The notes below the pieces were generated by a model, which was given only the letters and a program-made list of their open reading frames with translations, was not told where the DNA came from and did no database searches. This document shows positions 6,891 to 47,451 of a stretch of DNA of 64,000 nt, one piece after another (position 1 is the stretch's first letter; each line of letters starts with the position of its first letter). Where the stretch lies: the IMG/VR virus record IMGVR_UViG_3300025897_000009; one strand, given 5' to 3'. The DNA comes from a virus. A program made the position numbers and the translations under genes.

Positions 6891-7165
6891 TAAGTTTTTT
6901 GTGCTTTATTTGTAAGAGATAAGAAAGCATCATAACCACCGATCTTCTTACCTTTAAAAATAATCTGTGGAAAAGTTCTTGCCTCTGGAAACTCTTCAAA
7001 GAGTTGTTCTCTAGAGAAGTCTTCATTAAGTTTCTTAACTTCTATAGTGAATCCTTGTGATCTTGCTAGATCTTCTGCTCTTACACAATAAGGGCAGTTG
7101 TCTTTACTATAAATTACAACTTCTGCTTGTTCTTTTACTGTTTCAGTTTTTTTGCTTTTAGGCAT
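6890..7165 (-). CDS. nrdC: Glutaredoxin
   Basis: CPYC active site, TFPQI, IGGY; next to nrdAB. Confidence 0.9.
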   Translation of the reverse strand: MPKSKKTETVKEQAEVVIYSKDNCPYCVRAEDLARSQGFTIEVKKLNEDFSREQLFEEFPEARTFPQIIFKGKKIGGYDAFLSLTNKAQKT

Positions 7166-7388
7166 GTTTGACCTCTACTATTCTTCTGATCGTTGTCACA
7201 TCATTGTAGTCACCAAATGCAGTGTAGTCTCTTACGACCTTTTCTTCAGTTAGATAACCATCAACCACTCTTGTGGTAATAATTTCTCTGCGTAAAACAT
7301 CTTTTGTATCTTCAATACTATTAGGAAATGCCACACTAGTCATTGGTCCTTCTTGAATGTTTACTACCTTGTCATATTCTCTGCTCAT
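7158..7388 (-). CDS. Hypothetical protein
   Basis: Coupled ORF between nrdB and glutaredoxin. Confidence 0.65.
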   Translation of the reverse strand: MSREYDKVVNIQEGPMTSVAFPNSIEDTKDVLRREIITTRVVDGYLTEEKVVRDYTAFGDYNDVTTIRRIVEVKHA

Positions 7389-8482
7389 AATTTAAATCCT
7401 TTAAAAGTTTCATTTGTTACATCTTGTTTAATACCACCCATTACATAAGACTCTATCTCAGTTTCCTGTGGAGCATTTTGTAATCCTCTACTAGATAACC
7501 AATGTTGTGTCCATGGTAATGGATTGTTGTTTTGTGGTATGTTGTATATAGCATCCATACCCAATGCTCTTAATCGCTTGTTAGCAATAAACTCTACATA
7601 TGATCCAAGAAGGGAAGCATTCAGTCCTATCATACTTCCCTTTTGGAACAAAAATTCTGCCCATTCTTTTTCTTGCTGAACTGCTTCTTCATACATTTGA
7701 TACACAGTATCTTGCTGATCTTTGATCACCTTTAACATCACTTTGTCATTCTCAGACTTCTGATAGTTTTTAATAATGTGTTGCGATATTGCTAAATGCT
7801 GTGATTCATCTCTGGCGATCAGTGATATAATCTTTGCTGATCCTTCCATTAATCGCAGTTCTCCAAATCCAAATGTACAGGCAAAAGAAACAAAGAAACG
7901 AATACCTTCTAAAATGTTTATACTTATTAATGCGAGATATAACTTCGTATAGAGTTCTTCTTTATCAATCTTGTGTCCTACTTCGTATCGTCGTGCGGTA
8001 GATATAAAGTCATCGTATGATTTTGTTACAGTTTCTGCTCTTTTAAGTATTGCTTCTTCGTTGAGTATAGTGTCAAATACATCACCTGGATTAGGATATA
8101 AATTCTTTATCATATATGTATACGATCTAGAATGAATGGTTTCCATAAAGTCCCAAGCAATAATACATGCTTCTAATTCTGGAAGAGTGGTGTAAGGTAA
8201 TAGAGCAATCGCTGGTCCACGACCTTGTACACTATCCAGTAGTGTTTGGTATTTAAGATTAGAAGTGAAGATGTGCTTTTGCGCATCATTGAGTTGCTGA
8301 AAATCATTTCTATCTTTTTGTAAAGATACTTCTTCTGGTCTCCAAAAGTATCCTAATTGTGTTTGCGTGAGTTTATCAAAGATTGGATATTTAAATTCAT
8401 CGAATCTCTGAGTATTAAGTGCTTCGCCAAAGAACATCGGTTCTTTTAGGAAGTTGACTTTTTTTCTGTTAAATATACTCAT
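7385..8482 (-). CDS. nrdB: Ribonucleotide reductase class Ia beta subunit
   Basis: FWRPEEV, ETIHSRSY, LEGIRFF, RDESQH, APQETEIESY. Confidence 0.97.
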   Translation of the reverse strand: MSIFNRKKVNFLKEPMFFGEALNTQRFDEFKYPIFDKLTQTQLGYFWRPEEVSLQKDRNDFQQLNDAQKHIFTSNLKYQTLLDSVQGRGPAIALLPYTTLPELEACIIAWDFMETIHSRSYTYMIKNLYPNPGDVFDTILNEEAILKRAETVTKSYDDFISTARRYEVGHKIDKEELYTKLYLALISINILEGIRFFVSFACTFGFGELRLMEGSAKIISLIARDESQHLAISQHIIKNYQKSENDKVMLKVIKDQQDTVYQMYEEAVQQEKEWAEFLFQKGSMIGLNASLLGSYVEFIANKRLRALGMDAIYNIPQNNNPLPWTQHWLSSRGLQNAPQETEIESYVMGGIKQDVTNETFKGFKL

Positions 8483-9347
8483 CTATAATTGGTTCGTTTG
8501 TATAAGGGTCTGTAATGTCTGCACATGCTCGCATTGCTACTTCACCTTTTTCTTGTAACATATCTCCATATATGGTTTTTTCTTTTTCTGCTATAGTGGA
8601 ATAGTTATGATCATCATAAACACTTTCTCTACCATCGTATCTTAATGATTCACACCCTCTATATAGAGGTCCATTGGCATCAACATAGTGTGCAAAGATA
8701 TGTCTTGAGAATTTTCCTACTAACTTATCTCTCCAGTGTATAGCATTACATCCTTGATATGCTAATACATCTCCAGGTTCTAAGAATACTCTTTTGGCAC
8801 CCATCGCAAACCTTTCTTCAAAGTTTTTTTGTTGTACATATTCCCATGCTTCTTGGTAATCAACACCCACATAGTTCTTATCACCGAGTACCCATATTGA
8901 CCATGGTTTCTTATCGTCAGTTTCATATTCTATTGGAAATGTCATTGACACTTCACAACTAGGTCGATCTGTATGGGCAAACAGTCTAGCATCTCGATAG
9001 TAAGTCCTACCAAAACTATATGTTGGTACTAAAGACAATTCTAATGCTTCTTGTAAAGGTTTCTTCAACATGATGAGCATTGACTCACCAAAAGGAACAT
9101 TTGCCATGTTCTCAGATACATACTCGGTTTGTTCTCTACCATGAGGTGTAGGAACTACTGATTTCTCTTCATCCAAACCCATACCCCATTGTTCTGAGTT
9201 TTCAGTTCTTCTCCAACTATGTTTTGCAAACTCAATCATCCCTTCGGGAATAAAGTTTTTTAACACAACATATCGATTAGTTCTAAAAGATAAAGCAGTA
9301 TCAGACATTCCTGAGTGATCTAATACTTTAGATATTGCACGCATCAC
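8469..9347 (-). CDS. 2OG-Fe(II) oxygenase between nrdA and nrdB
   Basis: PTYSFGRTY, HTDRPSCEVS, GD..AYQGC..IHWR. Confidence 0.8.
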   Translation of the reverse strand: MMRAISKVLDHSGMSDTALSFRTNRYVVLKNFIPEGMIEFAKHSWRRTENSEQWGMGLDEEKSVVPTPHGREQTEYVSENMANVPFGESMLIMLKKPLQEALELSLVPTYSFGRTYYRDARLFAHTDRPSCEVSMTFPIEYETDDKKPWSIWVLGDKNYVGVDYQEAWEYVQQKNFEERFAMGAKRVFLEPGDVLAYQGCNAIHWRDKLVGKFSRHIFAHYVDANGPLYRGCESLRYDGRESVYDDHNYSTIAEKEKTIYGDMLQEKGEVAMRACADITDPYTNEPIIDEYI

Positions 9348-11634
9348 ATTCCTCAGGATCCTCTACTTGAAATGGATCCGCAGTTTTATTTAGTGTTTGT
9401 TCTTCTTCAACACTGTCGTCTGTTTTCATATCGTAAGTGTTTTGATAGTAAGATGTTTTCCATCCATACTTATATGTATTGAGTAAGTCGGTCGCCATCA
9501 TTGAGATAGGAACTTCATTGTTCTCATAGTTCTCAGGGTTGTATGACCAATTACCTGAGATCCCTTGATCAAAGAACTTCTGCATTACAGATACAACCTT
9601 GATGTATCCATCATTATCAGGCATGTCCCATAACAAAGTGTAATAAGACATTAACTTTTTATATCCTGGAACTATTTGCTTGAGAGGTCCTTTCTTTGAT
9701 TTTTTAACAGATAAGAAATCTCTTGGGGGTTCGATACCATTGGTTTCGTTAGATACCACTGAAGATGACTCACTAGGCATCTGTGCTGTAAGTGTAGAAT
9801 GTCGTAAACCAAAATCTTTAATATTAGCACGCAATGCTTCCCAATCACATTTGTATTCAGGTTTAACTAATTCATCGACTTCTTTCTTATAGTGATCAAT
9901 AGGCAGTAATCCTTCTGAGTATTTGGTTCTATCGTACCCATCACACGCACCTCTTTCTCTTGCTAGATCATTAGATGCTTTGAGTAGATTGTATTGAAAT
10001 GCTTCTGTAAGTTCGTGTACAACTTTGTGTGCTTCTGGATCAGAATACTTTACTTTATGTCTTGCTAGATAATGTGCTAATCCTATGTATCCTATTCCTA
10101 AACTTCTTCTAGACTTAGTAGATCTTTCTGCTGCGATAACTGGATATTGCTGATAATCGATAACTTCTTCTAGACCTCTTACTGCCAAATCACAAAGATT
10201 AGGCAATTCAGATAGATCGTCTTTAAGTGTGCCCACATTAATAGCAGATAAAATGCATAAAGCAATCTCACCCTGTCCGTCAATGTGGTCTATAGGAACT
10301 GTGGGTAAGGTAATTTCTTGACACAAGTTAGACATGTTGATTTTATCTAAGAATGAACTATGACTGTTAGAATGATCAATGTTCATGATATAGATTCTAC
10401 CAGTCTCTGCTCTTTCTTTGAGCATATCAGTAATCAGTTCTCTAGCACTTACTTTCTTTTTGGGTACTGAAGTTGCTCTTTCGTACTTCTCATACATCTC
10501 GTCAAACTCAGGTGTACCAAAGGCATCGTACAATCCTGGAACATCATGAGGTGAGAATAGAGTTATCTCACCATCACTTAAGAATCTTTCGTAGAAGAGT
10601 TTACTGAGTTGGATGCTGTAGTCGAGTTTTCTGACTCGGTTGTCTTCTGATCCTTTGTTGTTTTTGAGAACGAGGACATCTTCGATTTCAGCATGCCATA
10701 TAGGGAAATGCACTGTTGCTGAACCACCTCGTACTCCATTTTGAGTGCAGCAACGAACTGTTGCTTCAAATTTTTTAAGGAAGGGAATAACTCCTGTATG
10801 TTGAACTTCTCCTCCTCGAATTTTCGAACCGATCCCACGGATCCTACCAGCATTGATACCAATTCCTGCCCTTTGAGCAACATAACGACCCACAGCCATA
10901 TCAGAACTAAAAATAGAACCCAAAGTATCGTCAGTATCAACAAGAACACATGATGCAAACTGTCTAAGAGGAGTTCGCACACCTGCCATAATCGGTGTCG
11001 GAATGTTGATTTTAAATGTTGAAATTGCATCGTAATACCTCTTTATATAACTGAGTCTGGTTTCTTTCGGGTAATTGTGAAAGAGTACACATGCGATGCA
11101 CATGTACATGAACTGTGGTGTTTCAAAAACTATGTTTGTTGATCTATCTTGTACCAGATACTTATCAACCACTTGTCGCAAACCAGCATATGTAAATTCT
11201 AAATCTCTATCATGTTTAATAAAAGAATCTATCTTATCCCATTCTTCATCAGTGTAGTATGTTATTAAATTGCCATCATACACACCTTGCTTATTGTTTC
11301 GGATAATCATGTCTTTAATGGGTGGATAGATGTCTTGATCTTTCCATTTAGTATTAAAGACTTGTTTGCGTATAAGGAATAGAAGTAATCTGGCAGCAAC
11401 ATACTGATAGTTTGGACTTTCTAAAGATATAAGATCGGATGCTGATTTGATCAATATGTTTTGTATATCTGTAGATGTTATACCATCAAAGAATTGTAAC
11501 CCACTATTCATTTCAACCAATGATTCAGACACACCTGTAATACCATTACATGCTGCTGATACCATTTTATGAATCTTATCTAGATTGAGTTCTTCTTTCG
11601 TGCCGTCTCTTTTTACAATAGAAATGTTTTCCAT
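9328..11634 (-). CDS. nrdA: Ribonucleotide reductase class Ia alpha subunit
   Basis: ATP-cone VKRDG, QFASC, SNLCQEI, C-terminal CDAC. Confidence 0.97.
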   Translation of the reverse strand: MENISIVKRDGTKEELNLDKIHKMVSAACNGITGVSESLVEMNSGLQFFDGITSTDIQNILIKSASDLISLESPNYQYVAARLLLFLIRKQVFNTKWKDQDIYPPIKDMIIRNNKQGVYDGNLITYYTDEEWDKIDSFIKHDRDLEFTYAGLRQVVDKYLVQDRSTNIVFETPQFMYMCIACVLFHNYPKETRLSYIKRYYDAISTFKINIPTPIMAGVRTPLRQFASCVLVDTDDTLGSIFSSDMAVGRYVAQRAGIGINAGRIRGIGSKIRGGEVQHTGVIPFLKKFEATVRCCTQNGVRGGSATVHFPIWHAEIEDVLVLKNNKGSEDNRVRKLDYSIQLSKLFYERFLSDGEITLFSPHDVPGLYDAFGTPEFDEMYEKYERATSVPKKKVSARELITDMLKERAETGRIYIMNIDHSNSHSSFLDKINMSNLCQEITLPTVPIDHIDGQGEIALCILSAINVGTLKDDLSELPNLCDLAVRGLEEVIDYQQYPVIAAERSTKSRRSLGIGYIGLAHYLARHKVKYSDPEAHKVVHELTEAFQYNLLKASNDLARERGACDGYDRTKYSEGLLPIDHYKKEVDELVKPEYKCDWEALRANIKDFGLRHSTLTAQMPSESSSVVSNETNGIEPPRDFLSVKKSKKGPLKQIVPGYKKLMSYYTLLWDMPDNDGYIKVVSVMQKFFDQGISGNWSYNPENYENNEVPISMMATDLLNTYKYGWKTSYYQNTYDMKTDDSVEEEQTLNKTADPFQVEDPEECDACNI

Positions 11635-12629
11635 TATGTCCTCTTATATTGTCCTAGTTTCAATTTTGCTGATAATCCTTGATAGACATTATTTTCTATC
11701 GTATCCATTACTGTATCTATACCCAAAGCATTCACCATTTCATTGATGTCTTTGAGTTCTCCTATTCTTTTGTCATCCCAAATAACCACTCGCCATCCAT
11801 CTTCAATGACTTGGGAAATTTTATTTAGAATTTGTATAGATCTTGGTTCGTTGTCGTAAATGAGTATTGCTTGTTCTTTAAGTCCTTCATCTAGTTTACC
11901 AAAATCTGATCCTGCCACTGCTATACTATTGGGCAAGAATAAACTATCTAGTGGTCCTTCTGTGACATAGATAGGTTGAGTCGCGTCAATCTTATTGAGA
12001 TTGAAGATAAGTGGTTCGTTCTCATCAAACTTCATGGTAAGATAACGAAGATTGCTATCACCAATGGCTCGACCTGTGACACCTATAAGTGTGCCATCAA
12101 GAGAGTAGAAAGGCAAGATGATTCTCGCATCATTGCCTAAGATTCTCTCACGATACTTATCGCATATACTACTTAGTTCTTGTGCGTTTCTAATGAACCA
12201 TATGTCTTTCCATGCTTCTTCAGGTATGTTTCTATTGACAAGATACTCCTTTGCCTCTTCTACATTGACTGCCTTTTCGCACACTTTAGACAAAGGATGC
12301 TTGGGTTTGAACTTGGGTTTAAAAGCATGAGAGGGTGGAAGTTTTTGTTTCTTCTTACCACCATATATCTCTTTGATAAATTCTTTATAGAGTATAGAAT
12401 CTTGTTCTTTTAGGAATGCTTTGAATGAAGTGGACATACCACAGTTGTGGCATTTGTATACATAACTGCCTTTGTATAAGAAGTGATATCCTCTTGCTTT
12501 GTGTTCATGCTTTTCACTATCACCACAATATGGGCAACTATGGTTTAATAGATCTTCGGTCTTCCATTTAGCATTGCTGAATCTGGGAGTAACCAGACGC
12601 AAATACTTTTTCTCTAACCATAATGTCAT
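11634..12629 (-). CDS. 61: DNA primase (T4 gp61-like)
   Basis: CPYCGDS...CHNCG zinc finger, TEGPLDS and DNEPR TOPRIM motifs. Confidence 0.95.
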   Translation of the reverse strand: MTLWLEKKYLRLVTPRFSNAKWKTEDLLNHSCPYCGDSEKHEHKARGYHFLYKGSYVYKCHNCGMSTSFKAFLKEQDSILYKEFIKEIYGGKKKQKLPPSHAFKPKFKPKHPLSKVCEKAVNVEEAKEYLVNRNIPEEAWKDIWFIRNAQELSSICDKYRERILGNDARIILPFYSLDGTLIGVTGRAIGDSNLRYLTMKFDENEPLIFNLNKIDATQPIYVTEGPLDSLFLPNSIAVAGSDFGKLDEGLKEQAILIYDNEPRSIQILNKISQVIEDGWRVVIWDDKRIGELKDINEMVNALGIDTVMDTIENNVYQGLSAKLKLGQYKRT

Positions 12630-12635
12630 ACAGAT

Positions 12636-12664
12636 ATTGTACTCTATAATCGGAATGTTGTAAA
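12636..12664 (-). promoter_or_regulatory. Phage promoter (TTTACA-N17-TACAAT)
   Basis: 6 nt before the primase ATG. Confidence 0.75.
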
Positions 12665-12671
12665 GGTGGTT

Positions 12672-13040
12672 TTAGTTTTCTAGATCTTTTTCTAGATCTC
12701 TATAGTATTCAACTATGGAGATTATCTTTAATATGTATGCTTTCATTTCAGCAGTATTATAAGATAAGTTTTTGTAGTCATCTGGGGAAAGAGCATAGTA
12801 TGCTAACTCTGGTGCTAGACCTTGATCAACAAGATCTAAATACTCTCTCATGACATCAGGAGTTAATACTTTCCATTTGATTGGTTGTGTACTCACACCT
12901 GTGGGCATGGGTGGATGATACAAAGGAATGTTCATCGTTGCCCTGTTTACTTGTACTTCAGATATCTGTGGTTGATATCCACCAAGCATTGAACAACCAC
13001 TAATCGTTAGGATTGCTATTATCGTTGCTATCTTCTTCAT
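12672..13040 (-). CDS. Lipoprotein, probable o-spanin
   Basis: Signal peptide with ISGC lipobox, Pro-rich stretch; overlaps upstream TM/coiled-coil gene. Confidence 0.6.
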   Translation of the reverse strand: MKKIATIIAILTISGCSMLGGYQPQISEVQVNRATMNIPLYHPPMPTGVSTQPIKWKVLTPDVMREYLDLVDQGLAPELAYYALSPDDYKNLSYNTAEMKAYILKIISIVEYYRDLEKDLEN

Positions 13041-13428
13041 ATTGTTCTGGGTCAGTTAGGTTTTCAATATCTTTAAAAACACCTGTTGTGCCTTTGTTAA
13101 TAATCTTTTCAATAAGTCCAGGTTTCCCAAGAGTAAGTCTGTCCATATCATGACCTGCATACTTGTCAGCGAGGTCTTTGATCTGCTTATCAGCATCCCT
13201 TGCCTTTTTAGTCAACTCCGAATTTGCCTTCTGCATTTGCTCAAAATTGCCCTTAATTTGTTCCAAATTGGCATTCAAATCTGCGATTTCATTGCGAAAT
13301 TTGGTCTCATTTGCAACTGCCCTACCTATGTCACCCATTAGGGTCTCTATCTTACTGGAAGTGTAGTTGTAGTATAAAAAGAATGCAAGGCAAACCGATG
13401 CCAATGCTCCTATAAGTATTTTAGACAT
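13000..13428 (-). CDS. Probable i-spanin
   Basis: Single N-terminal TM followed by long coiled coil. Confidence 0.6.
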   Translation of the reverse strand: MSKILIGALASVCLAFFLYYNYTSSKIETLMGDIGRAVANETKFRNEIADLNANLEQIKGNFEQMQKANSELTKKARDADKQIKDLADKYAGHDMDRLTLGKPGLIEKIINKGTTGVFKDIENLTDPEQYEEDSNDNSNPND

Positions 13429-38958: not shown

Positions 38959-39117
38959 TCATCGTCCTTGACCTCTATATCTGCCCTGTGCTCTTTTCTT
39001 ATGCTTATTCAAAGTAGATGTTGCTTGTCGCACTTGTCTACCTCTGCCTGGAGTTCCTTGACTTGTTTTCTTACGAGTCACAGGAGTATGTTTGGTCAAT
39101 CTAAATTTTGCTGCCAT
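38959..39117 (-). CDS. Small basic conserved phage protein
   Basis: KKTSQG...NKHKKR...YRGQGR; start reset to MAAKF. Confidence 0.65.
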   Translation of the reverse strand: MAAKFRLTKHTPVTRKKTSQGTPGRGRQVRQATSTLNKHKKRAQGRYRGQGR

Positions 39118-39125
39118 AATAATTC

Positions 39126-41171
39126 CTATTTTGTAGTTGCTTCCCAGATGCCTTCCCAATCGCTTGGGTTTAATTGTTTCATCTTTTTACATCTTGATAC
39201 CATTATTTTACTATAATCTTCAAGTGGTGAAAAGGTGATTTTAGAATATATGTTGATGGATTTATCCCACTCTCCTTTTACATAAGCATCCCAAGCATCT
39301 TCTATATCCCTAACAGTATGTTTGTACACAGGAATATCAAATACAGTGTAGATGTTAACAGGTTCTTTCTTACCCTTAACAATCAATTTGTCAAGCAGAA
39401 TCCAAGTTAGACGATCATCATCTATGCCTTGCTTGGTGTTTTCTGATACAACCAATTCTACACCATAACTTTTTGATTGTCCTTCTAATCTTGCTCCCAA
39501 GTTTACAGGATCTCCAAGTACTGAGTAATCAAATCTTTGATCAGAACCCATGTTTCCTACAACTGCCTCTCCTGTGTTAATCCCTATACCTATGTTGATG
39601 GGTAGTAATCCTTCTTCAGTAAGTTCTTCATTCAAATCTTTCAAATCAGTTAGCATGTAAAGTGCAGAGTACACTGCTTTATGTTCTTGGTTCTCTATAT
39701 CTAAGGGTGCATTCCAAACTGCCATAATGCAATCACCCATGTATTTGTCGATCATACCATCTTTCTGTATAATGATATCCGTCATGGGTGTAAGGAATCT
39801 ATTGATCAAATGAGTAAGTCCTTGCGGATCTGTTTTGTATTGTTCACTGATAGGAGTGAATCCTCTAATGTCACAGAACAAGTAAGTCATTTGTTTGGTC
39901 TCACCACCCAACTGTAGCATCTCAGGATTCTTTTGTAGTTGTTTAACTAACTTAGGTGATAAATATGTACTGAACTGTTTTGAAATCTGTTGTCTTAATC
40001 TAAACTGACGATAGAAGTTATTAAATGATGCTTGAGTAAATATAACCCATAACGACAAGAGAGGAAAACTTGCGTCGATCAAAACTTTATAAGAATCATA
40101 ACTATAAACAGATAAGACATAACTCCCGAGAGTCAAAGAAGCAACCAAAGGTATTTGAACAACCAGAGGACTTCGATATACTATCAATACCAACAATAGA
40201 CCAAGCACCAGACTGGAAATTATTTCTGCGAGCAGTACTAGCGATGGACGACTAATTACAGTCCCATCTAGCATTGTTTGTAATATGTTTGCTTGAATCT
40301 CGTGAGGGAGTTTTGCTCCATATGGAGTATTCACTTGAGGTACGATGCCTTCTGCGGATACACCCATGATCACTGCTTTGCCTGATAGATCGGGCAGGGT
40401 ATCTTTACCCAATTCATAACTGTCAAAGTGATACTTGTAATCTATGTACACTCTTCCATTGCTGTCTGTTATGATCTTATCGTAAGGTGGTATTCTGAAT
40501 GCTTCTATTCCTAATTCATTTACAAAGACCTGATAAGAGGGTTCTCCTGTGAGGTTTCTTAACATCTCTAAAGCAAAAGAAGGATAGATCTTATCGTTTA
40601 CATTAATTGATACAGGAACTTGTCTTACTTTACCATCTACATCATTGGGTGCCACAGCAACACCTACACCAAAGGCATTGTCTTCGAATATTTCTAGATT
40701 GGTGACTATCCCTGGATAGTTATAAAGATAAGGTAGAGCATCTCCACCTATGGTACCTGTTCCTACATGAGGTGCCTTACTATCTAAACCTTTGATTGAA
40801 GGCATTTGTGATAGAACAACCCCACCATAAGGAAAGACTGATGATAAGAACTCATCATCGGTTGGGTTTGATGGATTTGCGAAAGTCGTATTGATTCCTA
40901 GTACAAAACCACCAGAATTAAATGTCTCAATTACATAGTTTCCGAGAACACTTCTATTAATAGGATAACCTGTATTTTGTAATGTGGTTTCACCTATCTC
41001 TAGTAGAACTATCTGATCACTATGCACTGGTTCAGTTGACATTATGTAATCAAACCAATTGAGTCGCAAAGTTTCTACTGGGACTGGATCAGATACTCTT
41101 AAAGCAGTCAATCCACCCAAAACTAATAAGCACATCCACCAAGATGTTAAAATCTTAGCAAATTTGTTCAT
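39126..41171 (-). CDS. CHASE2-domain class III adenylate/guanylate cyclase
   Basis: N-terminal TM, extracytoplasmic CHASE2-like region (DVDGKVRQVP, PSFALE, HEIQAN), 3 TMs, catalytic FCDIRGFT, DKYMGDCIMA, GDPVNLGARLEG. Confidence 0.92.
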   Translation of the reverse strand: MNKFAKILTSWWMCLLVLGGLTALRVSDPVPVETLRLNWFDYIMSTEPVHSDQIVLLEIGETTLQNTGYPINRSVLGNYVIETFNSGGFVLGINTTFANPSNPTDDEFLSSVFPYGGVVLSQMPSIKGLDSKAPHVGTGTIGGDALPYLYNYPGIVTNLEIFEDNAFGVGVAVAPNDVDGKVRQVPVSINVNDKIYPSFALEMLRNLTGEPSYQVFVNELGIEAFRIPPYDKIITDSNGRVYIDYKYHFDSYELGKDTLPDLSGKAVIMGVSAEGIVPQVNTPYGAKLPHEIQANILQTMLDGTVISRPSLVLLAEIISSLVLGLLLVLIVYRSPLVVQIPLVASLTLGSYVLSVYSYDSYKVLIDASFPLLSLWVIFTQASFNNFYRQFRLRQQISKQFSTYLSPKLVKQLQKNPEMLQLGGETKQMTYLFCDIRGFTPISEQYKTDPQGLTHLINRFLTPMTDIIIQKDGMIDKYMGDCIMAVWNAPLDIENQEHKAVYSALYMLTDLKDLNEELTEEGLLPINIGIGINTGEAVVGNMGSDQRFDYSVLGDPVNLGARLEGQSKSYGVELVVSENTKQGIDDDRLTWILLDKLIVKGKKEPVNIYTVFDIPVYKHTVRDIEDAWDAYVKGEWDKSINIYSKITFSPLEDYSKIMVSRCKKMKQLNPSDWEGIWEATTK

Positions 41172-41176
41172 AAGGT

Positions 41177-41184
41177 TATTTATT
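41177..41184 (-). promoter_or_regulatory. Late-type promoter AATAAATA
   Basis: 5 nt before the cyclase ATG. Confidence 0.55.
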
Positions 41185-41212
41185 AGATTCTAAAATTGAC
41201 TATATACTTATA

Positions 41213-41276
41213 TTACGATTCTGAAACTTTTAAGTTACGAATCTGAAACGAATTATGATACTACGAATATACAAAC
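41213..41276. repeat. Direct repeats TTACGAWTCTGAAAC (2 copies plus 1 degenerate)
   Basis: 41213-41227 and 41235-41249 differ at one base; CTACGAATATACAAAC at 41261-41276. Confidence 0.7.
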
Positions 41277-41326
41277 GATTTGACAAATTAATGAAAGTCT
41301 CCAGAATACAAAAAGTCTGGAAAATC

Positions 41327-41809
41327 TCACTCAAATAATTTATACTTAAACTCTAGTGACACTTCATGCCTTTCTGTATTGAAAAGGTATTCATTGTGCA
41401 CGACTACACTCCATTGCATCGTATTAATGAATCTAAGGTACTTGATTCTAAACTCATCATCCATGTAATCTATAGAATTTTTTATATACCAACCTGCAAA
41501 AATCTTCGTTAAGAGTACTCTCTGTCGATCAGGATTAGTTTTAAATAGAGGATTGCCCTCTTTAAGATTACAAGTAAACTCTTCAATGCATTTCTTTAAT
41601 CTTTTAGTTTGATGATGATCTATTGCGGATGCAATAAGATATTTCTTATATAGTCTCTTACTTGTTCTGGACCATGAGGTCTGATCAACTCTATAGTTGT
41701 CTATATAATTTTTCTTCACAGGCAAAGGCAAAGAGATTAATATCTCCTCAACCTGTGCGTGTAAAAAGAGTGGCAATGCTAGAACTAAGGTAAACAAAGT
41801 TCTAGTCAT
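41327..41809 (-). CDS. Exported hypothetical protein
   Basis: Signal peptide ending LHA-Q; EGNPL motif. Confidence 0.6.
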   Translation of the reverse strand: MTRTLFTLVLALPLFLHAQVEEILISLPLPVKKNYIDNYRVDQTSWSRTSKRLYKKYLIASAIDHHQTKRLKKCIEEFTCNLKEGNPLFKTNPDRQRVLLTKIFAGWYIKNSIDYMDDEFRIKYLRFINTMQWSVVVHNEYLFNTERHEVSLEFKYKLFE

Positions 41810-41884
41810 CGCAATACTCTGGGTTGTTAGAACAATAGAATTTAACTGCGTTCAGCATAAACATCATTTCGTCTTGCGTTAAAT

Positions 41885-41963
41885 CTCCATCACCCTTGAC
41901 ATTCCTAGCATCCTTTTTAGGGGATGCAGGAGTTTGTCTTTGGGGTGGAGTTCTTACTTTCCC
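41885..41963 (-). other. Candidate programmed -1 ribosomal frameshift signal
   Basis: In-phase G GGA AAG at 41963-41957, 6-nt spacer, extended hairpin 41950-41885. Confidence 0.7.
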
Positions 41964-42238
41964 TCTTTGGATTCTGGTTTAGACTGTAGTTCGTCTGTCT
42001 GTTTGTCGACTTCCTCAACTACTGTTTCGACTACACCACCAACTGCTGTTGATGCTGTGGAAACGATGCTTGCTGCATCTTCTAATACTGCTTGTCCAAC
42101 ACCACCGACAGTGCCGACAGTCGCATCGATAACACCTGTAGAAAGTTCTTTACCACCTTCTATAACTGCACCAACTGATGCGCATGATTGAACAAATAGT
42201 CCAAGAATCAATATGCTTATTGTATACAATTTAAACAT
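41954..42238 (-). CDS. Lipoprotein with Gly/Val/Ala/Thr-rich amphipathic region; candidate -1 frameshift extension to 41802
   Basis: GGAG SD before MFKLYT, VQSC lipobox; ends GAG GGA AAG TAA. Confidence 0.75.
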   Translation of the reverse strand: MFKLYTISILILGLFVQSCASVGAVIEGGKELSTGVIDATVGTVGGVGQAVLEDAASIVSTASTAVGGVVETVVEEVDKQTDELQSKPESKEGK

Positions 42239-42328
42239 AATATCTCCTTTTGAGTTTTTCAACTCTAGTTAACTCGTAATGTGCTCTCTAAGAGAGTACA
42301 ATACTCCTTTTTCCTCTTTCCTATGTAT

Positions 42329-43123
42329 TTAGTTGCCTTGTGTCACTGATATCGAACATCCACCAACTGTTTGACAATCTTGCGTAAGAGAATAAGTTTG
42401 TGCTGTGGATCCTTGTTGAAGCATGTATAAGTCTGTATCATATGTTCCATTTATTGTAACTGTGGCAGTATGTGTCGCACTTCCCTGTTGTATCATATCA
42501 ACATCATTGTAACTATTATTGATTGTTAAACTGAGTGTTTTGTCTTGGTTGCTTTCTTGTCTTGTGTACACATCGTTATAATCACCATAGATATAGGTGA
42601 TGTTTGAATGTTCGTGTCCTGAGTTATTTGCTCGTTGACTTCCCAAAAACTTATTGTTAGAACCATGAATATCTAATCGTGTAAAATGCCCACCATATTC
42701 ATAATCATCAATTGCTAACAATGTGCCTGAACTTGTTACATGATATCCTTGATAGAAGTCTACATCATTACTATTGCCTGCGATATGAAATTCAAATCTA
42801 TCACTCCCACAGGATGATCCTTGATTACATGTTTGTACAATTTTTAGATTATTGTAATCGCCATCTAAATCTCCACCCCAACTTAAACCTGAACCCCATA
42901 ATGTAGTGTAACCAACATATGCACTATTGCCTTGTTGTGTTATGTCAACTACATTATTGGCACCACCCACACTAAAATCTACTTTGCTGTTGTATCCTGT
43001 TTGGTTTATGGTGAGATCAAAGTTGTTACCCACTTGATTCATATAGATTTCATTATCTTGTGCTATTAGTAATGAAGCATAAGATGCTAAAATCATCCAA
43101 CCAATAATAAGCAATTTGTCCAT
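42329..43123 (-). CDS. Curlin-like beta-solenoid repeat protein
   Basis: Signal peptide; repeats of type N.I...Q.G..N (NEIYMNQVGNN, NVVDITQQGN, NDVDMIQQG, ISVTQGN). Confidence 0.75.
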   Translation of the reverse strand: MDKLLIIGWMILASYASLLIAQDNEIYMNQVGNNFDLTINQTGYNSKVDFSVGGANNVVDITQQGNSAYVGYTTLWGSGLSWGGDLDGDYNNLKIVQTCNQGSSCGSDRFEFHIAGNSNDVDFYQGYHVTSSGTLLAIDDYEYGGHFTRLDIHGSNNKFLGSQRANNSGHEHSNITYIYGDYNDVYTRQESNQDKTLSLTINNSYNDVDMIQQGSATHTATVTINGTYDTDLYMLQQGSTAQTYSLTQDCQTVGGCSISVTQGN

Positions 43124-44259
43124 TATCCTTCCTGTTTTATAATTATGTTAATAGAACCACCTTCGTTCACTGTAATCTCACTGGTAGCACCTGAGTTGTT
43201 GGTGGCATTGATAGTAGCATTTGCTTCCATACTCATTTTTATCGATAACACACCACCAGCATCTCTAAAGAATGTCACTGTACCTGAACCCTGATCGATA
43301 AAAGTATTGAAGTTGGTGACTTTGTCAAATCCTGGAGCAATTGTCCCTTTGATAAAAGAACCATCTCCCGATTTGTTTTGAGAGCCACCACCTTTCTGTC
43401 TTTGTATTTCAATATTTTCTAATACTTCTAATACATCTTGAAGTAAATCAACATCAAGTAAGTCAATATCTAATTCAGTAAACTCTAAACTGTCTTCTGT
43501 TAATTCTGGATCTTCTTCTAATAAGTTTTCTTCTAGTAGATCTATATCTAATATTCCACCATCTGAAGAATCACTCGAAGACATCTCTTCTTGCTGTTTT
43601 GTTATTTCTTTTGGTGGCGAAACTATAAACATGTTATCAATTAGATTCATGTCTATATCTAAAGTTGTTGGTGGAGTTGGACTCGTTTCTATATTCGGAG
43701 TCATTGTTGCTTGATATGCCTCGTTAAGAGTCACACTACCACCAGCAGTCGTCACCAATATCTCACCAGATGCGTTTCCGTTTTCATCTGGTAATAGTAT
43801 GATGAGAGATCTTCCTATCTCATCTACTGTTGTTGTAAAGTCTGTTCCCCTAATTGCTATATTTGCAGATGGGGTAGTAATATTTATATTTTGTTTGGGC
43901 ACCAACCCAATCTTTCCTGTAGCAAATCTTGCTGTGCCTGATGCGAATCGCATAGACATTTTGCTTTTACTAGGATTTGGATCGTAGACAACTTCGTCTA
44001 TGATCACTTTGCTGTGTTCTGTAAGTTTAAGAGTGGTATCGTCTATGAAGGTAACTTCTAATCTACCCTTCCCTGTACGCACATCATCATTGGAGAGTAT
44101 ATCAAATTCCAACTCTGGATCATATTGCTCTGCTGTTCGCAAAACCTTAGATCCAGAGCCAGACATGTCTGTAATATCCCCAATCGGTGAGGCATACGCA
44201 CTCCCAACTAGCAGTGTGCTAGTCAGCAGTATCTTGTTGAGTGATTGCAATAACTGCAT
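43123..44259 (-). CDS. FecR-domain periplasmic protein
   Basis: Signal peptide, DDVRTG, F.DDT.LKL...S, TPSANIAIRGTDF; acidic linker. Confidence 0.85.
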   Translation of the reverse strand: MQLLQSLNKILLTSTLLVGSAYASPIGDITDMSGSGSKVLRTAEQYDPELEFDILSNDDVRTGKGRLEVTFIDDTTLKLTEHSKVIIDEVVYDPNPSKSKMSMRFASGTARFATGKIGLVPKQNINITTPSANIAIRGTDFTTTVDEIGRSLIILLPDENGNASGEILVTTAGGSVTLNEAYQATMTPNIETSPTPPTTLDIDMNLIDNMFIVSPPKEITKQQEEMSSSDSSDGGILDIDLLEENLLEEDPELTEDSLEFTELDIDLLDVDLLQDVLEVLENIEIQRQKGGGSQNKSGDGSFIKGTIAPGFDKVTNFNTFIDQGSGTVTFFRDAGGVLSIKMSMEANATINATNNSGATSEITVNEGGSINIIIKQEG

Positions 44260-44938
44260 TATCTGATGTCACGTCTAAATCAATGTGCCCATAACAAGAA
44301 GTAACTCCTGTTGGACATGTCCCTGATTTTTGTATAATATCTAAATCACCACTGCCACCATCAAAGTCAACTGTTTGATATTGATAAGCACCATCTGTTT
44401 GACTTGACACGATGTCATTATCTGAACCATCAACTTCCCAATCCCATGTAGCATCGTCAACTTCTACATCTATATCAAATGTATTAGTAGATCCTGTTAA
44501 GACTAGGTCAAAATCAAATCTTTCTGCTGAGGTCACATAACCCCAGTCTAAGTCCCAAGTGTTTGAATCTCCTGTAGCACTCAGATCAAAATCTGAACTG
44601 TCTGTACTTCCAAGATATCCTATATTCCAGTCTAAAACATTTGAGTCACCAGTGAACAAAGTTGTGAAACTTGAACTATCTGATTTAAGTGGACCATAAA
44701 GAATATTACTATTACCTATTTGGTCTATATCAATATTTAAACTAGAACCTGTTATAACCATATCGGCAGCAGTTGAACTAAAGTCATTGCCTCCGATTTT
44801 ATTTCCATAACCTGTTTGTTGAATGTTCAGGTTAAGAGTATCACCAACTTGCTCTATGAAGATTTGGTTGTCAGATGTACTTTGCGCATAAGTTCCTACT
44901 GACACGAGTAGTATTACTAAAGATGTTAAAAATTTCAC
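44219..44938 (-). CDS. Curlin-like beta-solenoid repeat protein
   Basis: Signal peptide; DNQIFIEQVGD, IQQTGYGN, IDQIGNSN, repeated TGDSN. Confidence 0.75.
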   Translation of the reverse strand: MKFLTSLVILLVSVGTYAQSTSDNQIFIEQVGDTLNLNIQQTGYGNKIGGNDFSSTAADMVITGSSLNIDIDQIGNSNILYGPLKSDSSSFTTLFTGDSNVLDWNIGYLGSTDSSDFDLSATGDSNTWDLDWGYVTSAERFDFDLVLTGSTNTFDIDVEVDDATWDWEVDGSDNDIVSSQTDGAYQYQTVDFDGGSGDLDIIQKSGTCPTGVTSCYGHIDLDVTSDNAVIAITQQDTAD

Positions 44939-45840
44939 CTTTTTTCTCCTGTTTCGTTATCGGCATCCACTTGAGGGAGTCTCCTCCAATAACCTCGTTC
45001 TTCCCCTTGTAATATAATACTAAAGACTGCCTCCTCAATGGCAGTTCGTACAGCATAGGTCACACTCTCATTCTCAGAGATTCCATCTTCTATTTCGACT
45101 AATTTAGTGTCGGTATCTACGAATCGAAAAACATCGAATCCTTGAGCAACACTTAAAACAGTTTTGTATGACTGGACATTCATAAGAACTTCTCCAGTTG
45201 ACACACTAACTGCTCGCAGAGATATTATAACTGCATCTCTACGATATTGTTGGCTGGCACCGACACCTAAGTATCTGGCACCATTACCACCTGTTTCTAT
45301 GTTCGTATCATATCCGATGATTCCTCCCTCGAATATCATACCAGCAAATAACATTGGTTGAATGACTTCTTTATCATCATTCATATCTAAGTAAGTTTGG
45401 CGAGTTGATTTAACAATCTGTCTTTCTCTTACTAAGTGATCTAATCCTGTTCTTTCTACAACTCTAAACCATTTGCCATCACCTGCTGCTTTGAGTGCAT
45501 CAATCAATAAAGATTCTGCACCTTGTGTCACAGCAGTTGAAAAGTCAGCAATGTTTTGTTTAGACTTTCTTTGCCCTGTTAGATCATTAAACTTATAAAC
45601 TGCGACCACTGGTTGCTGATAGGGTGGTCTTAATAGTTTTAATTTTTTATGTGTAGGCAACTCAACATTTGTTGGACCTTCTACACAAGGGATAAATTGC
45701 TCATAGGTAGAACCATAGATATCTTTCACTTGGAACTTACCATCTGCCTCTACGCAATCTAATACTCTAGGATTGGGCATTGATGCACAACCTGATAGAA
45801 TAAGAATAACTGCTAGGAGGACTTTAACCACCGATGCCAC
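44935..45840 (-). CDS. csgG: Curli secretion channel CsgG/HfaB-family lipoprotein
   Basis: LSGC lipobox, VAVYKF.DLTGQ, FSTAVTQG, WFRVVER.GL..L..ERQI, EGGIIGYD. Confidence 0.93.
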   Translation of the reverse strand: MASVVKVLLAVILILSGCASMPNPRVLDCVEADGKFQVKDIYGSTYEQFIPCVEGPTNVELPTHKKLKLLRPPYQQPVVAVYKFNDLTGQRKSKQNIADFSTAVTQGAESLLIDALKAAGDGKWFRVVERTGLDHLVRERQIVKSTRQTYLDMNDDKEVIQPMLFAGMIFEGGIIGYDTNIETGGNGARYLGVGASQQYRRDAVIISLRAVSVSTGEVLMNVQSYKTVLSVAQGFDVFRFVDTDTKLVEIEDGISENESVTYAVRTAIEEAVFSIILQGEERGYWRRLPQVDADNETGEKR

Positions 45841-46336
45841 CTATAGTTCCTGCACCCACTGGTATAGTAATTGTAGTGGTAGATCCTTCAGAATCGACGA
45901 TAGTCAATATGATGACTTCATCTCCTGCTACACATCCTGTCATGTCACCCATACAGATTCCTGTTTCATATGTGACAGTGTTGCCTTCTATAAGGAATGT
46001 ACCAAAAGTAGACCCCTCTCCACTAAAGAGTGCCTCTACTAAGTCTTTACTGATTTGTGAGTAGATTCTAGATTCTAAGTTTCTCATAAACTTAGCAAGA
46101 GTTGAATTTTCCGCATCTCTTTCTGCTTGTCTTATCGCAGCATCTATATCTTCTTGTATCTTATCTCTTCTTGCTTTCTCTTGGTTATCAATCGTTAGAT
46201 AATGTGAAGATGTACCAACTCCACTAAATGATGGATTTTTAAATTGTTGTACTAATTGATCTGCTGTGAGTCCTACCATAAAGAATGGTATTACTAGAGC
46301 AATCAGTTTATTTACTAGATTTATTTTTCGATGCAT
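45824..46336 (-). CDS. csgF: Curli assembly protein CsgF-like
   Basis: Signal peptide then L..QFKNPSFSG (CsgF N-terminal motif); C-terminal TTITIP; adjacent to csgG. Confidence 0.85.
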   Translation of the reverse strand: MHRKINLVNKLIALVIPFFMVGLTADQLVQQFKNPSFSGVGTSSHYLTIDNQEKARRDKIQEDIDAAIRQAERDAENSTLAKFMRNLESRIYSQISKDLVEALFSGEGSTFGTFLIEGNTVTYETGICMGDMTGCVAGDEVIILTIVDSEGSTTTITIPVGAGTIGGIGG

Positions 46337-46607
46337 TCTGTTTTCCTTCTTCGAGTATTTTTTGTCTTTCACGATATTCAAGTACAACATTGACTTTTTG
46401 TTGTAATCGTATCAGATCTTGATCAAGCATTCTTGTTTGATCTATCACTCGAATTAGTGCAAAGTGCATCTTTTCGATTTGGGGTTCTATCTCTTCCGAG
46501 ATAAAATTCCACACAAAGTATACAAAGTATCCCAAACCTGCCATCATGACAGCAGGGAAACCATATTGACCTATAAGGTCAACGAGTAATGAAGTTTGTT
46601 CTTCCAT
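46308..46607 (-). CDS. Small membrane protein (TM plus coiled coil)
   Basis: QYGFP...GYFVYFVW then coiled coil. Confidence 0.65.
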   Translation of the reverse strand: MEEQTSLLVDLIGQYGFPAVMMAGLGYFVYFVWNFISEEIEPQIEKMHFALIRVIDQTRMLDQDLIRLQQKVNVVLEYRERQKILEEGKQNASKNKSSK

Positions 46608-46772
46608 TTAATCTGGCAACTCCAGTTTCTTTAATACTTCTGCGATTGCCATTACTTCTTCGACATTAACTGCCTGTTCTGGTATCGTTGCTGGTGTAAC
46701 AACAACCTCTTCCTCTACGACTTCTTCATTGCAGAGTGCAAAGTATAATAATCCTATAACTAAAAATTCCAT
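46608..46772 (-). CDS. Small acidic exported/membrane protein (54 aa)
   Basis: Manual translation MEFLVIGLLYFALCNEEVVEEE...; AGGAG SD; fills gap exactly. Confidence 0.65.
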   Translation of the reverse strand: MEFLVIGLLYFALCNEEVVEEEVVVTPATIPEQAVNVEEVMAIAEVLKKLELPD

Positions 46773-47068
46773 TAATCTCTCCTAGCATCAACTTTGCCGT
46801 CTTCGACAAAATTTTCTGCTCTTGCAACTCTATCGATATCTGGTCTCAAGTCCAAGGCACTACTGACTAATAAATCAATCTTTGTCATTTCGTTTGCCAT
46901 AGTTCTTGCTCTATTTTCTAAGGACTCACAAAACATAGTGAGGGTTGCGATCGAATCAACAATCCCCTGCATAATCTGTTTCATGACTAAGAAGATAAAG
47001 AACCCCATTACCAATGCCATGGCAATTGGGACTCCTAGATCACCTACTAATATGAAAAAACTTTCCAT
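46772..47068 (-). CDS. Small membrane protein (TM plus coiled coil)
   Basis: DLGVPIA...GFFIFLV; C-terminal DARRD. Confidence 0.65.
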   Translation of the reverse strand: MESFFILVGDLGVPIAMALVMGFFIFLVMKQIMQGIVDSIATLTMFCESLENRARTMANEMTKIDLLVSSALDLRPDIDRVARAENFVEDGKVDARRD

Positions 47069-47390
47069 TCTCTATTCCATTTATTGTAAAGGATTCACCA
47101 CAACCACAGGTTGCCTCTGTATGAGGGTTCACAAAGTCGAACCGACTGTTCAGACCTTCTGTGATATAATCTAAAGTCATCCCTTCTAAGTGAGGAGCAG
47201 ATAATTTGTCGATGGCAACTTTGAATTTACCATAATCTATAATCTGATCACTCTCTTCTATTTGGTAAAGAAAATCAAATACATACTTCCAACCATTACA
47301 ACCTGCAGGTTGAAGTCCTAATCTGACTCCTTCTTTACCTTTTGTCTTGTCTAACAAAACTTCGATTGCCTTGTCAGTAATTTCAATCAT
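47040..47390 (-). CDS. iscA: Iron-sulfur cluster assembly accessory protein (IscA/HesB)
   Basis: GCNG, LDY, NP...TCGCGESF. Confidence 0.92.
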   Translation of the reverse strand: MIEITDKAIEVLLDKTKGKEGVRLGLQPAGCNGWKYVFDFLYQIEESDQIIDYGKFKVAIDKLSAPHLEGMTLDYITEGLNSRFDFVNPHTEATCGCGESFTINGIENGKFFHISR

Positions 47391-47395
47391 ACTTC

Positions 47396-47403
47396 TATTT
47401 ATA
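47396..47403 (-). promoter_or_regulatory. T4-type late promoter TATAAATA
   Basis: Exact consensus 5 nt before iscA ATG, just downstream of a terminator. Confidence 0.7.
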
Positions 47404-47423: not shown

Positions 47424-47451
47424 AAAAAAAGGGAGCATAAATGCTCCCTTT
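47424..47451 (-). terminator. Rho-independent terminator
   Basis: GGGAGCAT/ATGCTCCC inverted repeat followed by a T7 run on the minus strand. Confidence 0.85.

Follow-up and report, generated by a model that had tools for sequence, protein, structure and literature searches.

A curli gene block with a FecR-fold protein and a CHASE2 adenylate cyclase in a marine T4-like phage

Curli genes in pelagiphages were first seen in HTVC008M (Zaragoza-Solas 2020, PMC7029224) and have also been reported in phage Melnitz (Buchholz 2022, PMC9004378). Wittmers et al. 2022 (PMC9599517) described the entire pelagiphage viral T8SS (curli) region, including FecR and an adenylate cyclase, and its detection in metatranscripts. 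Curli genes are lacking in the host (PMC9599517, PMC9004378). In the account of Wittmers et al., FecR is treated as an iron regulator, the small membrane proteins are called ‘histidine kinases’ and the CHASE2 domain goes unnamed, since the word CHASE is absent from the main text. Podophage versions of the region always contain FecR and only frequently the cyclase (PMC9599517); because the cyclase is the less constant of the two, FecR may work without it. FecR/CHASE2 clusters have also been published from bacteria, as the BiofilmReg operon of Burkholderia (PMC5192318) and as a CHASE2-cyclase/PDE/FecR/TPR cluster of Campylobacterota (PMC9239204).

Here we analysed 64,000 nucleotides of the IMG/VR virus record IMGVR_UViG_3300025897_000009 (the whole stretch is referred to as the window). 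This marine T4-like (SAR11-type) phage bears an intact curli block, with an outer-membrane pore, two fibre-type proteins, a FecR-fold protein and a cyclase. In the order of the minus strand, the features are:

47424..47448, minus strand: intrinsic terminator hairpin read from the sequence (7-bp GC-rich stem, 4-nt loop, run of seven T)
47396..47403, minus strand: TATAAATA, a T4-type late-promoter motif read from the sequence; the iscA ATG lies 5 nt downstream
47040..47390, minus strand: IscA/HesB-like A-type Fe-S carrier (PF01521, Fe-S_biosyn, E 1.3e-16)
46772..47068, minus strand: TM1, 98 aa, a single membrane helix at the N terminus followed by a coiled-coil tail (phrog_18771, E 7e-23)
46608..46772, minus strand: 54-aa open reading frame between TM1 and TM2, of uncertain coding status
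46308..46607, minus strand: TM2, 99 aa, with a YGFP motif, membrane helix and coiled coil (phrog_18771, E 1.4e-24)
45824..46336, minus strand: CsgF homologue (PF10614, E 6.9e-12), with a signal peptide followed by the conserved FKNPSFSG
44935..45840, minus strand: CsgG outer-membrane lipoprotein pore (PF03783, E 2.9e-50), lipobox LSGC
44219..44938, minus strand: curlin 1, a beta-solenoid protein of the curlin family; it has a signal peptide and, close to its C terminus, a conserved pair of Cys residues
43123..44259, minus strand: exported FecR-fold protein (PF04773, E 1.9e-11)
42329..43123, minus strand: curlin 2, the second beta-solenoid protein of the curlin family; it has a signal peptide and contains two CxxxxxC pairs
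41954..42262, minus strand: 102-aa putative lipoprotein (signal peptide with VQSC), belonging to a variable insert that separates curlin 2 from the cyclase
41327..41809, minus strand: 160-aa exported protein, part of the variable insert
41172..41326, minus strand: 155-nt spacer upstream of the cyclase; its sigma-70-like site (TTGTCA, 17 nt, TAGTAT) is a consensus match only, such sites being no commoner in the region than in shuffles
39126..41171, minus strand: membrane CHASE2 class III adenylate cyclase (PF05226, E 3.8e-25; PF00211, Guanylate_cyc, E 1.6e-18)

The original prediction of a single-strand block behind a terminator and a late promoter was borne out: the Fe-S_biosyn, CsgF, CsgG, FecR, CHASE2 and Guanylate_cyc profiles all matched, and every named domain lies on the minus strand where it had been placed. 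The co-linear small membrane proteins, CsgF, CsgG, curlin, FecR, curlin and cyclase are annotated in identical order in Pelagibacter phage HTVC008M and Methylophilales phage Melnitz, the proteins of which are 33–49% identical to those described here. The block is therefore the pelagimyophage ‘viral type VIII secretion (curli) region’, an already published ‘viral curli’ gene block, and its supposed novelty does not hold, as PMC9599517 had included FecR and the cyclase. Among IMG/VR relatives the block is near-invariant, with TM1/TM2 and CsgF in all 71 related loci, and FecR and the cyclase together in 34 of the 35 informative (myophage) loci; its description as one conserved unit in phages thus stands.

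The hairpin ahead of the block, which is absent from the output of the consensus scan, terminates the upstream 94-aa gene. The late-promoter motif has ten matches in the window, all of them on the coding strand, and NATAAATA occupies the equivalent position ahead of the module's leading gene in many relatives; the block is probably transcribed late. To judge from the sequence of the spacer, the cyclase may have a promoter of its own.

CsgG is 44–56% identical to the copies of HTVC008M, Melnitz and a further related locus (L007). The CsgF reading frame has alternative starts at 46390 and 46336, of which the second ATG, 46336, is the likely one. In CsgF, F32, P35 and F37 are invariant, and F-x-N-P-x-F is unchanged across an alignment of 11 homologues; we take this segment to correspond to the CsgG-binding motif of E. 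coli. By sequence, the CsgG-family lipoprotein pore and a CsgF with its conserved N-terminal segment make up a minimal curli export machine. As originally noted, csgE, csgC and csgD are lacking: none of their products had a Pfam match in the block, and CsgE was not found in five related phage records. All three are likewise missing from alphaproteobacterial curli loci (PMC9599517).

The two solenoid proteins had been called curlin-like, and this holds for their families: Curlin_rpt was matched by 14 of 30 relatives of curlin 1 (best E 1e-5) and by 17 of 28 relatives of curlin 2 (best E 5.8e-10), although the two copies in the window had no match at Pfam thresholds. For both family profiles, the two best PDB sequence matches are CsgA 8enq and curlin 8c50 (E 4.9e-4 and 8.2e-4, respectively, for curlin 2). 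The model of curlin 1 (pLDDT 83.5) is a beta-solenoid with Z 16.9 to curli CsgA 8c50_A, and Q-x-G-x-x-N repeats are retained in the solenoid proteins. Given also the Sec signal peptides, the simplest reading would be that both proteins are exported, and the assertion that the block serves something other than amyloid export was not upheld, with the CsgF motif kept and both solenoids in curlin-repeat families.

The prediction of a FecR domain in an exported protein was confirmed. A signal peptide is followed by the FecR domain (residues ~23–200), an acidic disordered linker (~206–300) and, in the model, a C-terminal domain of six beta-strands (~300–378). The model has Z 14.8 to the C-terminal domain of PupR (6ovm_R) and Z 13.1 to 4m0h, which identifies a true FecR/PupR fold. 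The protein has no membrane helix besides its signal peptide and no cytoplasmic anti-sigma domain, and the block’s proteins include no ECF sigma or TonB-dependent transducer partner. In known systems, this fold binds the periplasmic domain of an outer-membrane protein. An HMM of the C-terminal domain matches curli-linked copies only, and no similarity of the domain could be detected, whether to CsgE or to anything else. The gene sits between the two curlin genes, and a curlin gene and the variable insert part it from the cyclase.

Hydrophobic segments place the CHASE2 domain (residues 22–325) of the cyclase in the periplasm, flanked on one side by a membrane helix at the N terminus and on the other by clustered membrane helices (~305–395) that precede the cytoplasmic cyclase domain. 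Both metal Asp residues are present (FCDIRGFT, DKYMGD), the transition-state Asn and Arg lie in PVNLGARLE and the substrate Lys is in DKYMGD. Ser occupies the second specificity position, which is Asp or Thr in other class III cyclases. Alignment to Cya2 (2w01, 6fht) and CyaB (3r5g) supports the metal-binding Asp and the DKYMGD Lys named in the original prediction. With every catalytic residue present, the enzyme looks competent and not dead, and its predicted product is cAMP.

Of the three small membrane or exported proteins initially listed near the start of the block, two stood. TM1 (hydrophobic segment at residues 11–29) and TM2 are paralogues that align together as members of phrog_18771, and no similarity to histidine kinases was found in either. 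The third, the 54-aa frame, has no Pfam match, tblastn found no counterpart of it in the related loci, and TM1 directly abuts TM2 in relatives. Neither iscA nor the two small exported proteins, which had been counted as block members, are conserved parts. Of 71 related loci, no more than 21 have an iscA gene, which takes two differing positions in or beside the block and is an accessory passenger outside its core. Homologues of the 102-aa lipoprotein occur in ~14 of 80 related loci, with none found in HTVC008M or Melnitz; the 160-aa protein has no Pfam or PHROG match, a 34% identical copy in one related locus (L003) and a sporadic presence elsewhere. Both are lineage-specific.

The occurrence of FecR and the cyclase apart from csgFG had been named as grounds for refuting the proposed signalling circuit. 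In the related phages they do not occur apart from it; in bacteria they do, as a FecR and CHASE2-cyclase pair was present in 16 of 75 loci and CsgG in none of the 16. The two genes are directly adjacent in many bacterial lineages, and we found betaproteobacterial CRP/FecR/CHASE2-cyclase/TPR loci. A CRP-family gene adjoins 11 of the 16 pairs, a TPR protein is a usual neighbour and large RTX-type secreted proteins (RTX/DUF4214/cadherin) are often nearby. In bacteria the pair forms a cAMP unit of its own, to which CsgG does not belong. FecR and CHASE2 are not known from biochemistry to interact in any organism. The CRP HMM made for this analysis, which matched 11 of the 16 bacterial loci, had no match in the window and none in 86 phage loci, and PF00027 was not found in HTVC008M, Melnitz or three IMG/VR contigs; without a cNMP-binding protein in the phages, the cyclase output therefore has no known target. 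In two Caulobacteraceae MAG species, the whole block lies on a cellular contig and was probably acquired horizontally. TM1/TM2, universal in phage versions, are absent from the bacterial copy.

We give an even chance to the reading that the block is a curlin export machine plus an envelope-to-cAMP sensor formed by FecR and the CHASE2 cyclase. Both curlins would leave through CsgG and CsgF and reach the surface of infected cells, and the sensor pair, presumably taken from the bacterial CRP/FecR/CHASE2-cyclase/TPR unit, would use cAMP to inform the cytoplasm of the state of the pore, fibre or envelope. In FecR, the acidic linker and the C-terminal domain that only curli-linked copies have would be the likely adaptation tying the protein to the secretion machine, and the cAMP receiver would be a host protein or something unrecognised. 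Counting against this reading are the missing clumping in Melnitz-infected cultures (PMC9004378), window curlins that fall short of Pfam thresholds, the lack of a known cAMP target, the curlin gene and insert that part FecR from a cyclase with a possible promoter of its own, and the podophage versions with a less constant cyclase (PMC9599517). The trans-envelope circuit first proposed survives in part: the phage gene unit, the cyclase residues, the exported FecR fold and the recurrent bacterial pair favour it, but no phage-encoded cAMP receptor was found. A wider version, which we consider possible but rather unlikely, makes FecR and the CHASE2-cyclase a general sensor of surface-fibre or adhesin status that phages grafted onto curli, with the C-terminal domain of FecR as the dedicated link. 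Phage fibres would be displayed on infected SAR11/OM43 cells, and contact or aggregation would lead to cAMP, through which a non-canonical receiver would time late events. The bacterial version would then be wired to CRP and large secreted adhesins, and candidates for the phage receiver would include a host factor and TM1/TM2, the small membrane proteins that all phage versions have.

An antenna in place of fibre export, in which CsgG/CsgF and the solenoids hand an external cue on to FecR and then CHASE2 and the resulting cyclic nucleotide sets lysis timing, superinfection exclusion or aggregation, would suit a FecR fold of the kind that contacts outer-membrane transducers in cell-surface signalling. 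It also fits the strict synteny, the missing CsgE gate, the confinement of the FecR C-domain to curli-linked copies and the lack of clumping in Melnitz-infected cultures (PMC9004378). We find it unlikely, however, given curlin-repeat families with their repeats kept, a conserved CsgF motif, bacterial FecR/CHASE2 units that manage without CsgG and no nucleotide receptor in the phage loci examined. The absence of CsgE and the extra FecR domain could also mean that FecR is mainly a secretion accessory, standing in for CsgE as gate or adaptor of CsgG, with the cyclase as a separately acting host-manipulation gene that travels along. The position of FecR between two curlin genes, the insert and promoter-like spacer before the cyclase, and the podophage versions in which only FecR is constant (PMC9599517) agree with this; the near-constant pairing of FecR and cyclase in myophage loci, their adjacency in many bacterial lineages and a C-domain unlike CsgE make it improbable.

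Two published proposals fare less well. Buchholz et al. 2022 (PMC9004378) argued for a lysis-timing device, in which CsgG/CsgF are repurposed as a gated secretin- or pinholin-like channel that would set off lysis on opening, with TM1/TM2 as holin/antiholin-like partners, and the late-promoter motif and the presence of TM1/TM2 in all phage versions but not in the bacterial copy are in keeping with it. Yet an outer-membrane pore is unable to depolarise the inner membrane, the Atlas leads for TM2 (YvrJ, 0.88; Holin_BhlA, 0.84) fall below the tool’s lead threshold of 0.9 with no Pfam or PDB support for a holin, and two curlins, FecR and the cyclase are left unexplained; we consider it very unlikely. 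An ungated CsgG that admits cofactors, siderophores or larger nutrients to the periplasm, with an iron-related FecR (PMC7029224, PMC9599517), would accord with the missing gate and the occasional IscA-like gene. It seems to us scarcely probable, as the FecR domain is a protein–protein signalling fold and not an iron binder, a FecA/FecI partner is absent, and the curlins, CsgF and cyclase have no role in it.

Compared with known systems, the phage protein shares the periplasmic FecR fold of FecIRA/PupIRB but lacks the anti-sigma domain, membrane helix, ECF sigma factor and TonB-dependent transducer. With the curli system of E. coli (CsgBAC/CsgDEFG) the block has in common a CsgG lipoprotein pore, CsgF and secreted curlin-repeat subunits; it differs in having no CsgE, CsgC or CsgD, in curlins with Cys pairs and divergent later repeats, and in the addition of FecR, a cyclase and two small membrane proteins. 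As in the bacterial FecR/CHASE2 pairs, an exported FecR-domain protein is encoded with a CHASE2 membrane sensor, with the same class III cyclase as output in most cases found here; however, a cNMP-binding receptor, of the CRP family or another, and a TPR protein are encoded beside the bacterial units, which have no CsgG, whereas the phage has neither receptor nor TPR, and its FecR has another C-terminal domain. The pelagiphage viral T8SS region has the same genes in the same order, to which this lineage adds a leading IscA-like gene, two small exported proteins and the 155-nt spacer before the cyclase.

The window is a portion of a pelagimyophage-type (T4-like) genome, with a GC content of about 36% and almost all genes on the minus strand. 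The region of interest is flanked by genes for the gp43 polymerase, the gp44 clamp-loader subunit, the gp45 sliding clamp, RegA, Hsp20 and a peroxiredoxin, and comprises the following features.

Layout of the block, in order along the minus strand
47448-47424, minus strand: terminator hairpin with a T7 run, from direct sequence reading
47403-47396, minus strand: TATAAATA, 5 nt upstream of the first ATG
47040-47390, minus strand: IscA-like Fe-S carrier gene (PF01521)
after the IscA-like gene, minus strand: TM1, a 98-aa small membrane/coiled-coil protein (phrog_18771)
46608-46772, minus strand: 54-aa ORF filling the gap between TM1 and TM2
minus strand: TM2, 99 aa, a paralogue of TM1 (phrog_18771)
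after TM2, minus strand: CsgF (PF10614)
after CsgF, minus strand: CsgG (PF03783, with a lipobox)
44219-44938, minus strand: curlin-like protein 1, 239 aa, after CsgG
between the two curlin-like proteins, minus strand: FecR-domain protein, 378 aa
42329-43123, minus strand: curlin-like protein 2, 264 aa, after the FecR-domain protein
after curlin-like protein 2, minus strand: putative lipoprotein (102 aa), then an exported protein (160 aa)
41172-41326, minus strand: non-coding spacer of 155 nt, directly before the cyclase
last in the block, minus strand: CHASE2 and Guanylate_cyc protein, 681 aa

All of the main domains named in the original prediction were matched (PF01521, PF10614, PF03783, FecR, CHASE2 and Guanylate_cyc), and its annotation of the block was correct in most respects. 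Signal peptides start CsgF, CsgG, both curlins, FecR and the 102-aa and 160-aa proteins. In none of the related loci does the 54-aa ORF have a counterpart; there the TM1 and TM2 genes abut. A Lys/Arg-rich ORF of 52 aa with no Pfam match (38962-39117, minus strand) begins 9 nt past the cyclase stop codon.

Late transcription of the block is supported by the many relatives that have NATAAATA at the same position ahead of the module's first gene. Only 5 nt separate the end of TATAAATA from the start codon (47391-47403), a spacing that also recurs in many relatives and implies that the late mRNA would be leaderless or have a very short leader. Several TTCGT repeats and a sigma-70-like site lie in the spacer before the cyclase; transcription of the cyclase may be independent of the late operon.

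The block has already been published, and its detection in our genome scan is a re-discovery. Annotations of Pelagibacter phage HTVC008M and Methylophilales phage Melnitz show the same gene order, csgF and csgG were reported in pelagimyophages by Zaragoza-Solas et al. 2020 (PMC7029224), and the whole cassette ('HK', CsgF, CsgG, CsgA/B, FecR, a second CsgA/B and adenylate cyclase) was described in podo- and myo-pelagiphages by Wittmers et al. 2022 (PMC9599517). The latter study also gives its ocean-wide abundance and transcripts, with the block making up some 0.1% of the viral proteins assembled at all 65 GOV2.0 stations; it interprets FecR as an iron regulator, and 'CHASE' is absent from its text. 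In our own searches the FecR family alone yielded more than 6,300 relatives, in line with an abundant block.

We took the best 80 of 571 IMG/VR csgG loci. Because these are the nearest relatives, their counts cover the myophage type only. Within this set, CsgF and the TM1/TM2 pair occur in all 71 loci with enough upstream DNA, and FecR and the CHASE2 cyclase are both present in 34 of the 35 that extend 7.5 kb or more downstream. The interval from curlin 2 to the cyclase contains 0 to 7 variable ORFs, and the IscA-like gene, found in 21 of 71 related phage loci (L085-L164 set), occupies either of two sites, one ahead of TM1 and the other between curlin 2 and the cyclase. The nearest virus record in the collection (G001) lacks the cyclase, and megablast against the phage collection returned no match. 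The label of TM1/TM2 as 'histidine kinases' (PMC9599517) was rejected: there was no Pfam match at E ≤ 0.1, and the profile against the PDB gave only coiled-coil noise. Protein-atlas leads to YvrJ and BhlA-type holins both fell under the threshold of the tool.

Neither solenoid protein of the window matched Pfam when queried singly. Among orthologues gathered from related phage contigs, Curlin_rpt was matched by 14 of 30 members of family 1 (best E 1e-5) and 17 of 28 members of family 2 (best E 5.8e-10). The two best PDB sequence matches of both family profiles were E. coli CsgA (8enq; E 0.0095 for family 1 and 4.9e-4 for family 2) and a Pontibacter curlin (8c50; E 0.056 and 8.2e-4). AlphaFold models protein 1 with confidence (pLDDT 83.5) as a beta-solenoid, for which SufD-like beta-helices tied with the curli subunit 8c50_A as top structural matches (Z 16.9, 18% identity); Foldseek returned weak, generic beta-helix matches only. 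The fold is by itself generic, and it is the sequence evidence that places both predicted solenoids among the curlins. Both families have conserved Cys pairs near the C terminus (C-x6-C in protein 1, two C-x5-C in protein 2), which E. coli CsgA is not known to have. Directly after its signal peptide, CsgF carries an invariant F-x-N-P-x-F motif, which corresponds to the segment that E. coli CsgF places inside the barrel of CsgG.

The modelled FecR domain matches the cell-surface signalling domain of PupR (Z 14.8, rmsd 2.8, 137 residues). It is followed by a linker that is disordered in the model (27 acidic versus 5 basic residues) and by a confidently modelled C-terminal domain of six strands, which has no Pfam match, only spurious designed ankyrin repeats as PDB sequence matches, and best fold matches of only Z ~3.5. 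An HMM of the C-terminal domain run against all 80 bacterial loci (see below) matched only the two curli-linked copies; this dedication to curli-linked FecR suggests that the domain is physically tied to the secretion machine. Two other assignments of this domain were rejected. A curlin repeat at the C terminus (...IIIKQEG, compare ...SVTQGN in curlin) scored a probability of 4.9% in profile-profile comparison (A4, the FecR family alignment, against A3, that of curlin 1), and for a LapA/MpIBP-type plug VIA puts the Foldseek match, 5ix9, on residues 23-122 instead. Those residues, the first half of the FecR domain (approximately 44193-43894), resemble the RIN periplasmic retention ('plug') domain of the Marinomonas RTX adhesin 5ix9 (Z 6.8, rmsd 2.2, 72/76 residues, 24% identity).

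Alignment of the cyclase domain to Cya2 and CyaB bore out the predicted metal-binding Asp residues, both present, and the Lys of DKYMGD; the Asn and Arg of PVNLGARLE are also kept, and the second specificity position is Ser. Hydrophobic segments are consistent with CHASE2 in the periplasm and the cyclase domain in the cytoplasm. HTVC008M, Melnitz and three long IMG/VR contigs yielded no cNMP-binding domain, and a CRP HMM run against all six reading frames matched neither the window nor any of 86 phage loci.

A FecR profile scan of one genome per prokaryote species yielded 80 loci. Three are phage-like contigs in MAG bins: L005 and L009, which additionally carry TM1/TM2 and other phage genes, and L008, a 5.9-kb fragment classed as phage-like solely because its cyclase groups with that of L009. 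Two loci from Caulobacteraceae MAG species (L006 and L007, on contigs of 32 and 82 kb) encode csgF, csgG, two curlins, FecR and the CHASE2 cyclase; TM1/TM2, universal in phage versions of the block, are missing from this bacterial copy. In L007 the block (5782-13091; GC 0.47-0.52) is preceded by a calcineurin-like phosphoesterase gene and flanked by genes for methylmalonyl-CoA mutase, acyl-CoA dehydrogenase and amidohydrolase (GC 0.55-0.60); a cellular genome thus holds FecR and the cyclase within a curli locus. Among 201 genomes of the same order the block occurs in that one genome only, and in a quick cyclase tree, provisional as to its root, its copy falls within the module clade together with phage-like contigs from fresh water (99* and 100*). 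The Caulobacteraceae block was probably acquired horizontally, from a phage. The nearest alphaproteobacterial FecR homologues (about 214 aa) are orphans amid housekeeping genes; neither CHASE2 nor CsgG lies close by, and these homologues give no clue to function.

The predicted tie of FecR and cyclase to csgFG holds in the related phages, whereas in the remaining 75 loci an iterated HMM placed a CHASE2-cyclase gene beside FecR in 16 and CsgG in none. A CRP-family gene lies within a few kb in 11 of these 16 (Pfam confirms six), TPR proteins are common neighbours, and several loci run on into large RTX/DUF4214 or cadherin/Big_9 secreted proteins. Oxalobacteraceae-type loci (L083:9069-20426, also L059, L073 and L081) have a divergent CRP-family regulator, FecR, the CHASE2 cyclase and a TPR protein, then a secreted protein exceeding 1,700 aa that has RTX, DUF4214, cadherin and Big_9 domains; the arrangement is a candidate for a cAMP circuit linked to an adhesin. 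This gene context, with CRP and TPR neighbours and no CsgG, indicates that FecR and the CHASE2 cyclase form a putative self-standing unit of cAMP signalling in bacteria, one that often adjoins surface-protein genes, and the phage block appears to be this pair joined to a curli machine.

Because all export parts are present and apparently intact, export of the two curlins by the block is the default reading, and the FecR/CHASE2 pair is most likely an envelope sensor that would produce cAMP. The original prediction of a sensor rather than an amyloid exporter is possible, at lower odds. So too are a CsgE-like role for FecR, an uptake channel and the lysis-timing pore proposed by Buchholz et al. 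2022 (PMC9004378).

The block is predicted to give SAR11 and OM43, which lack curli genes, a new surface structure and a source of cAMP while infected; if the fibres are real, they would matter in the open ocean for aggregation, the formation of particles and encounters between phage and host. The bacterial FecR/CHASE2-cyclase loci found here match published clusters of Campylobacterota (PMC9239204) and Burkholderia (PMC5192318), and if the pair is a true sensor it would offer the first lead to a ligand or partner for CHASE2, the signal of which is called unknown in the Burkholderia study.
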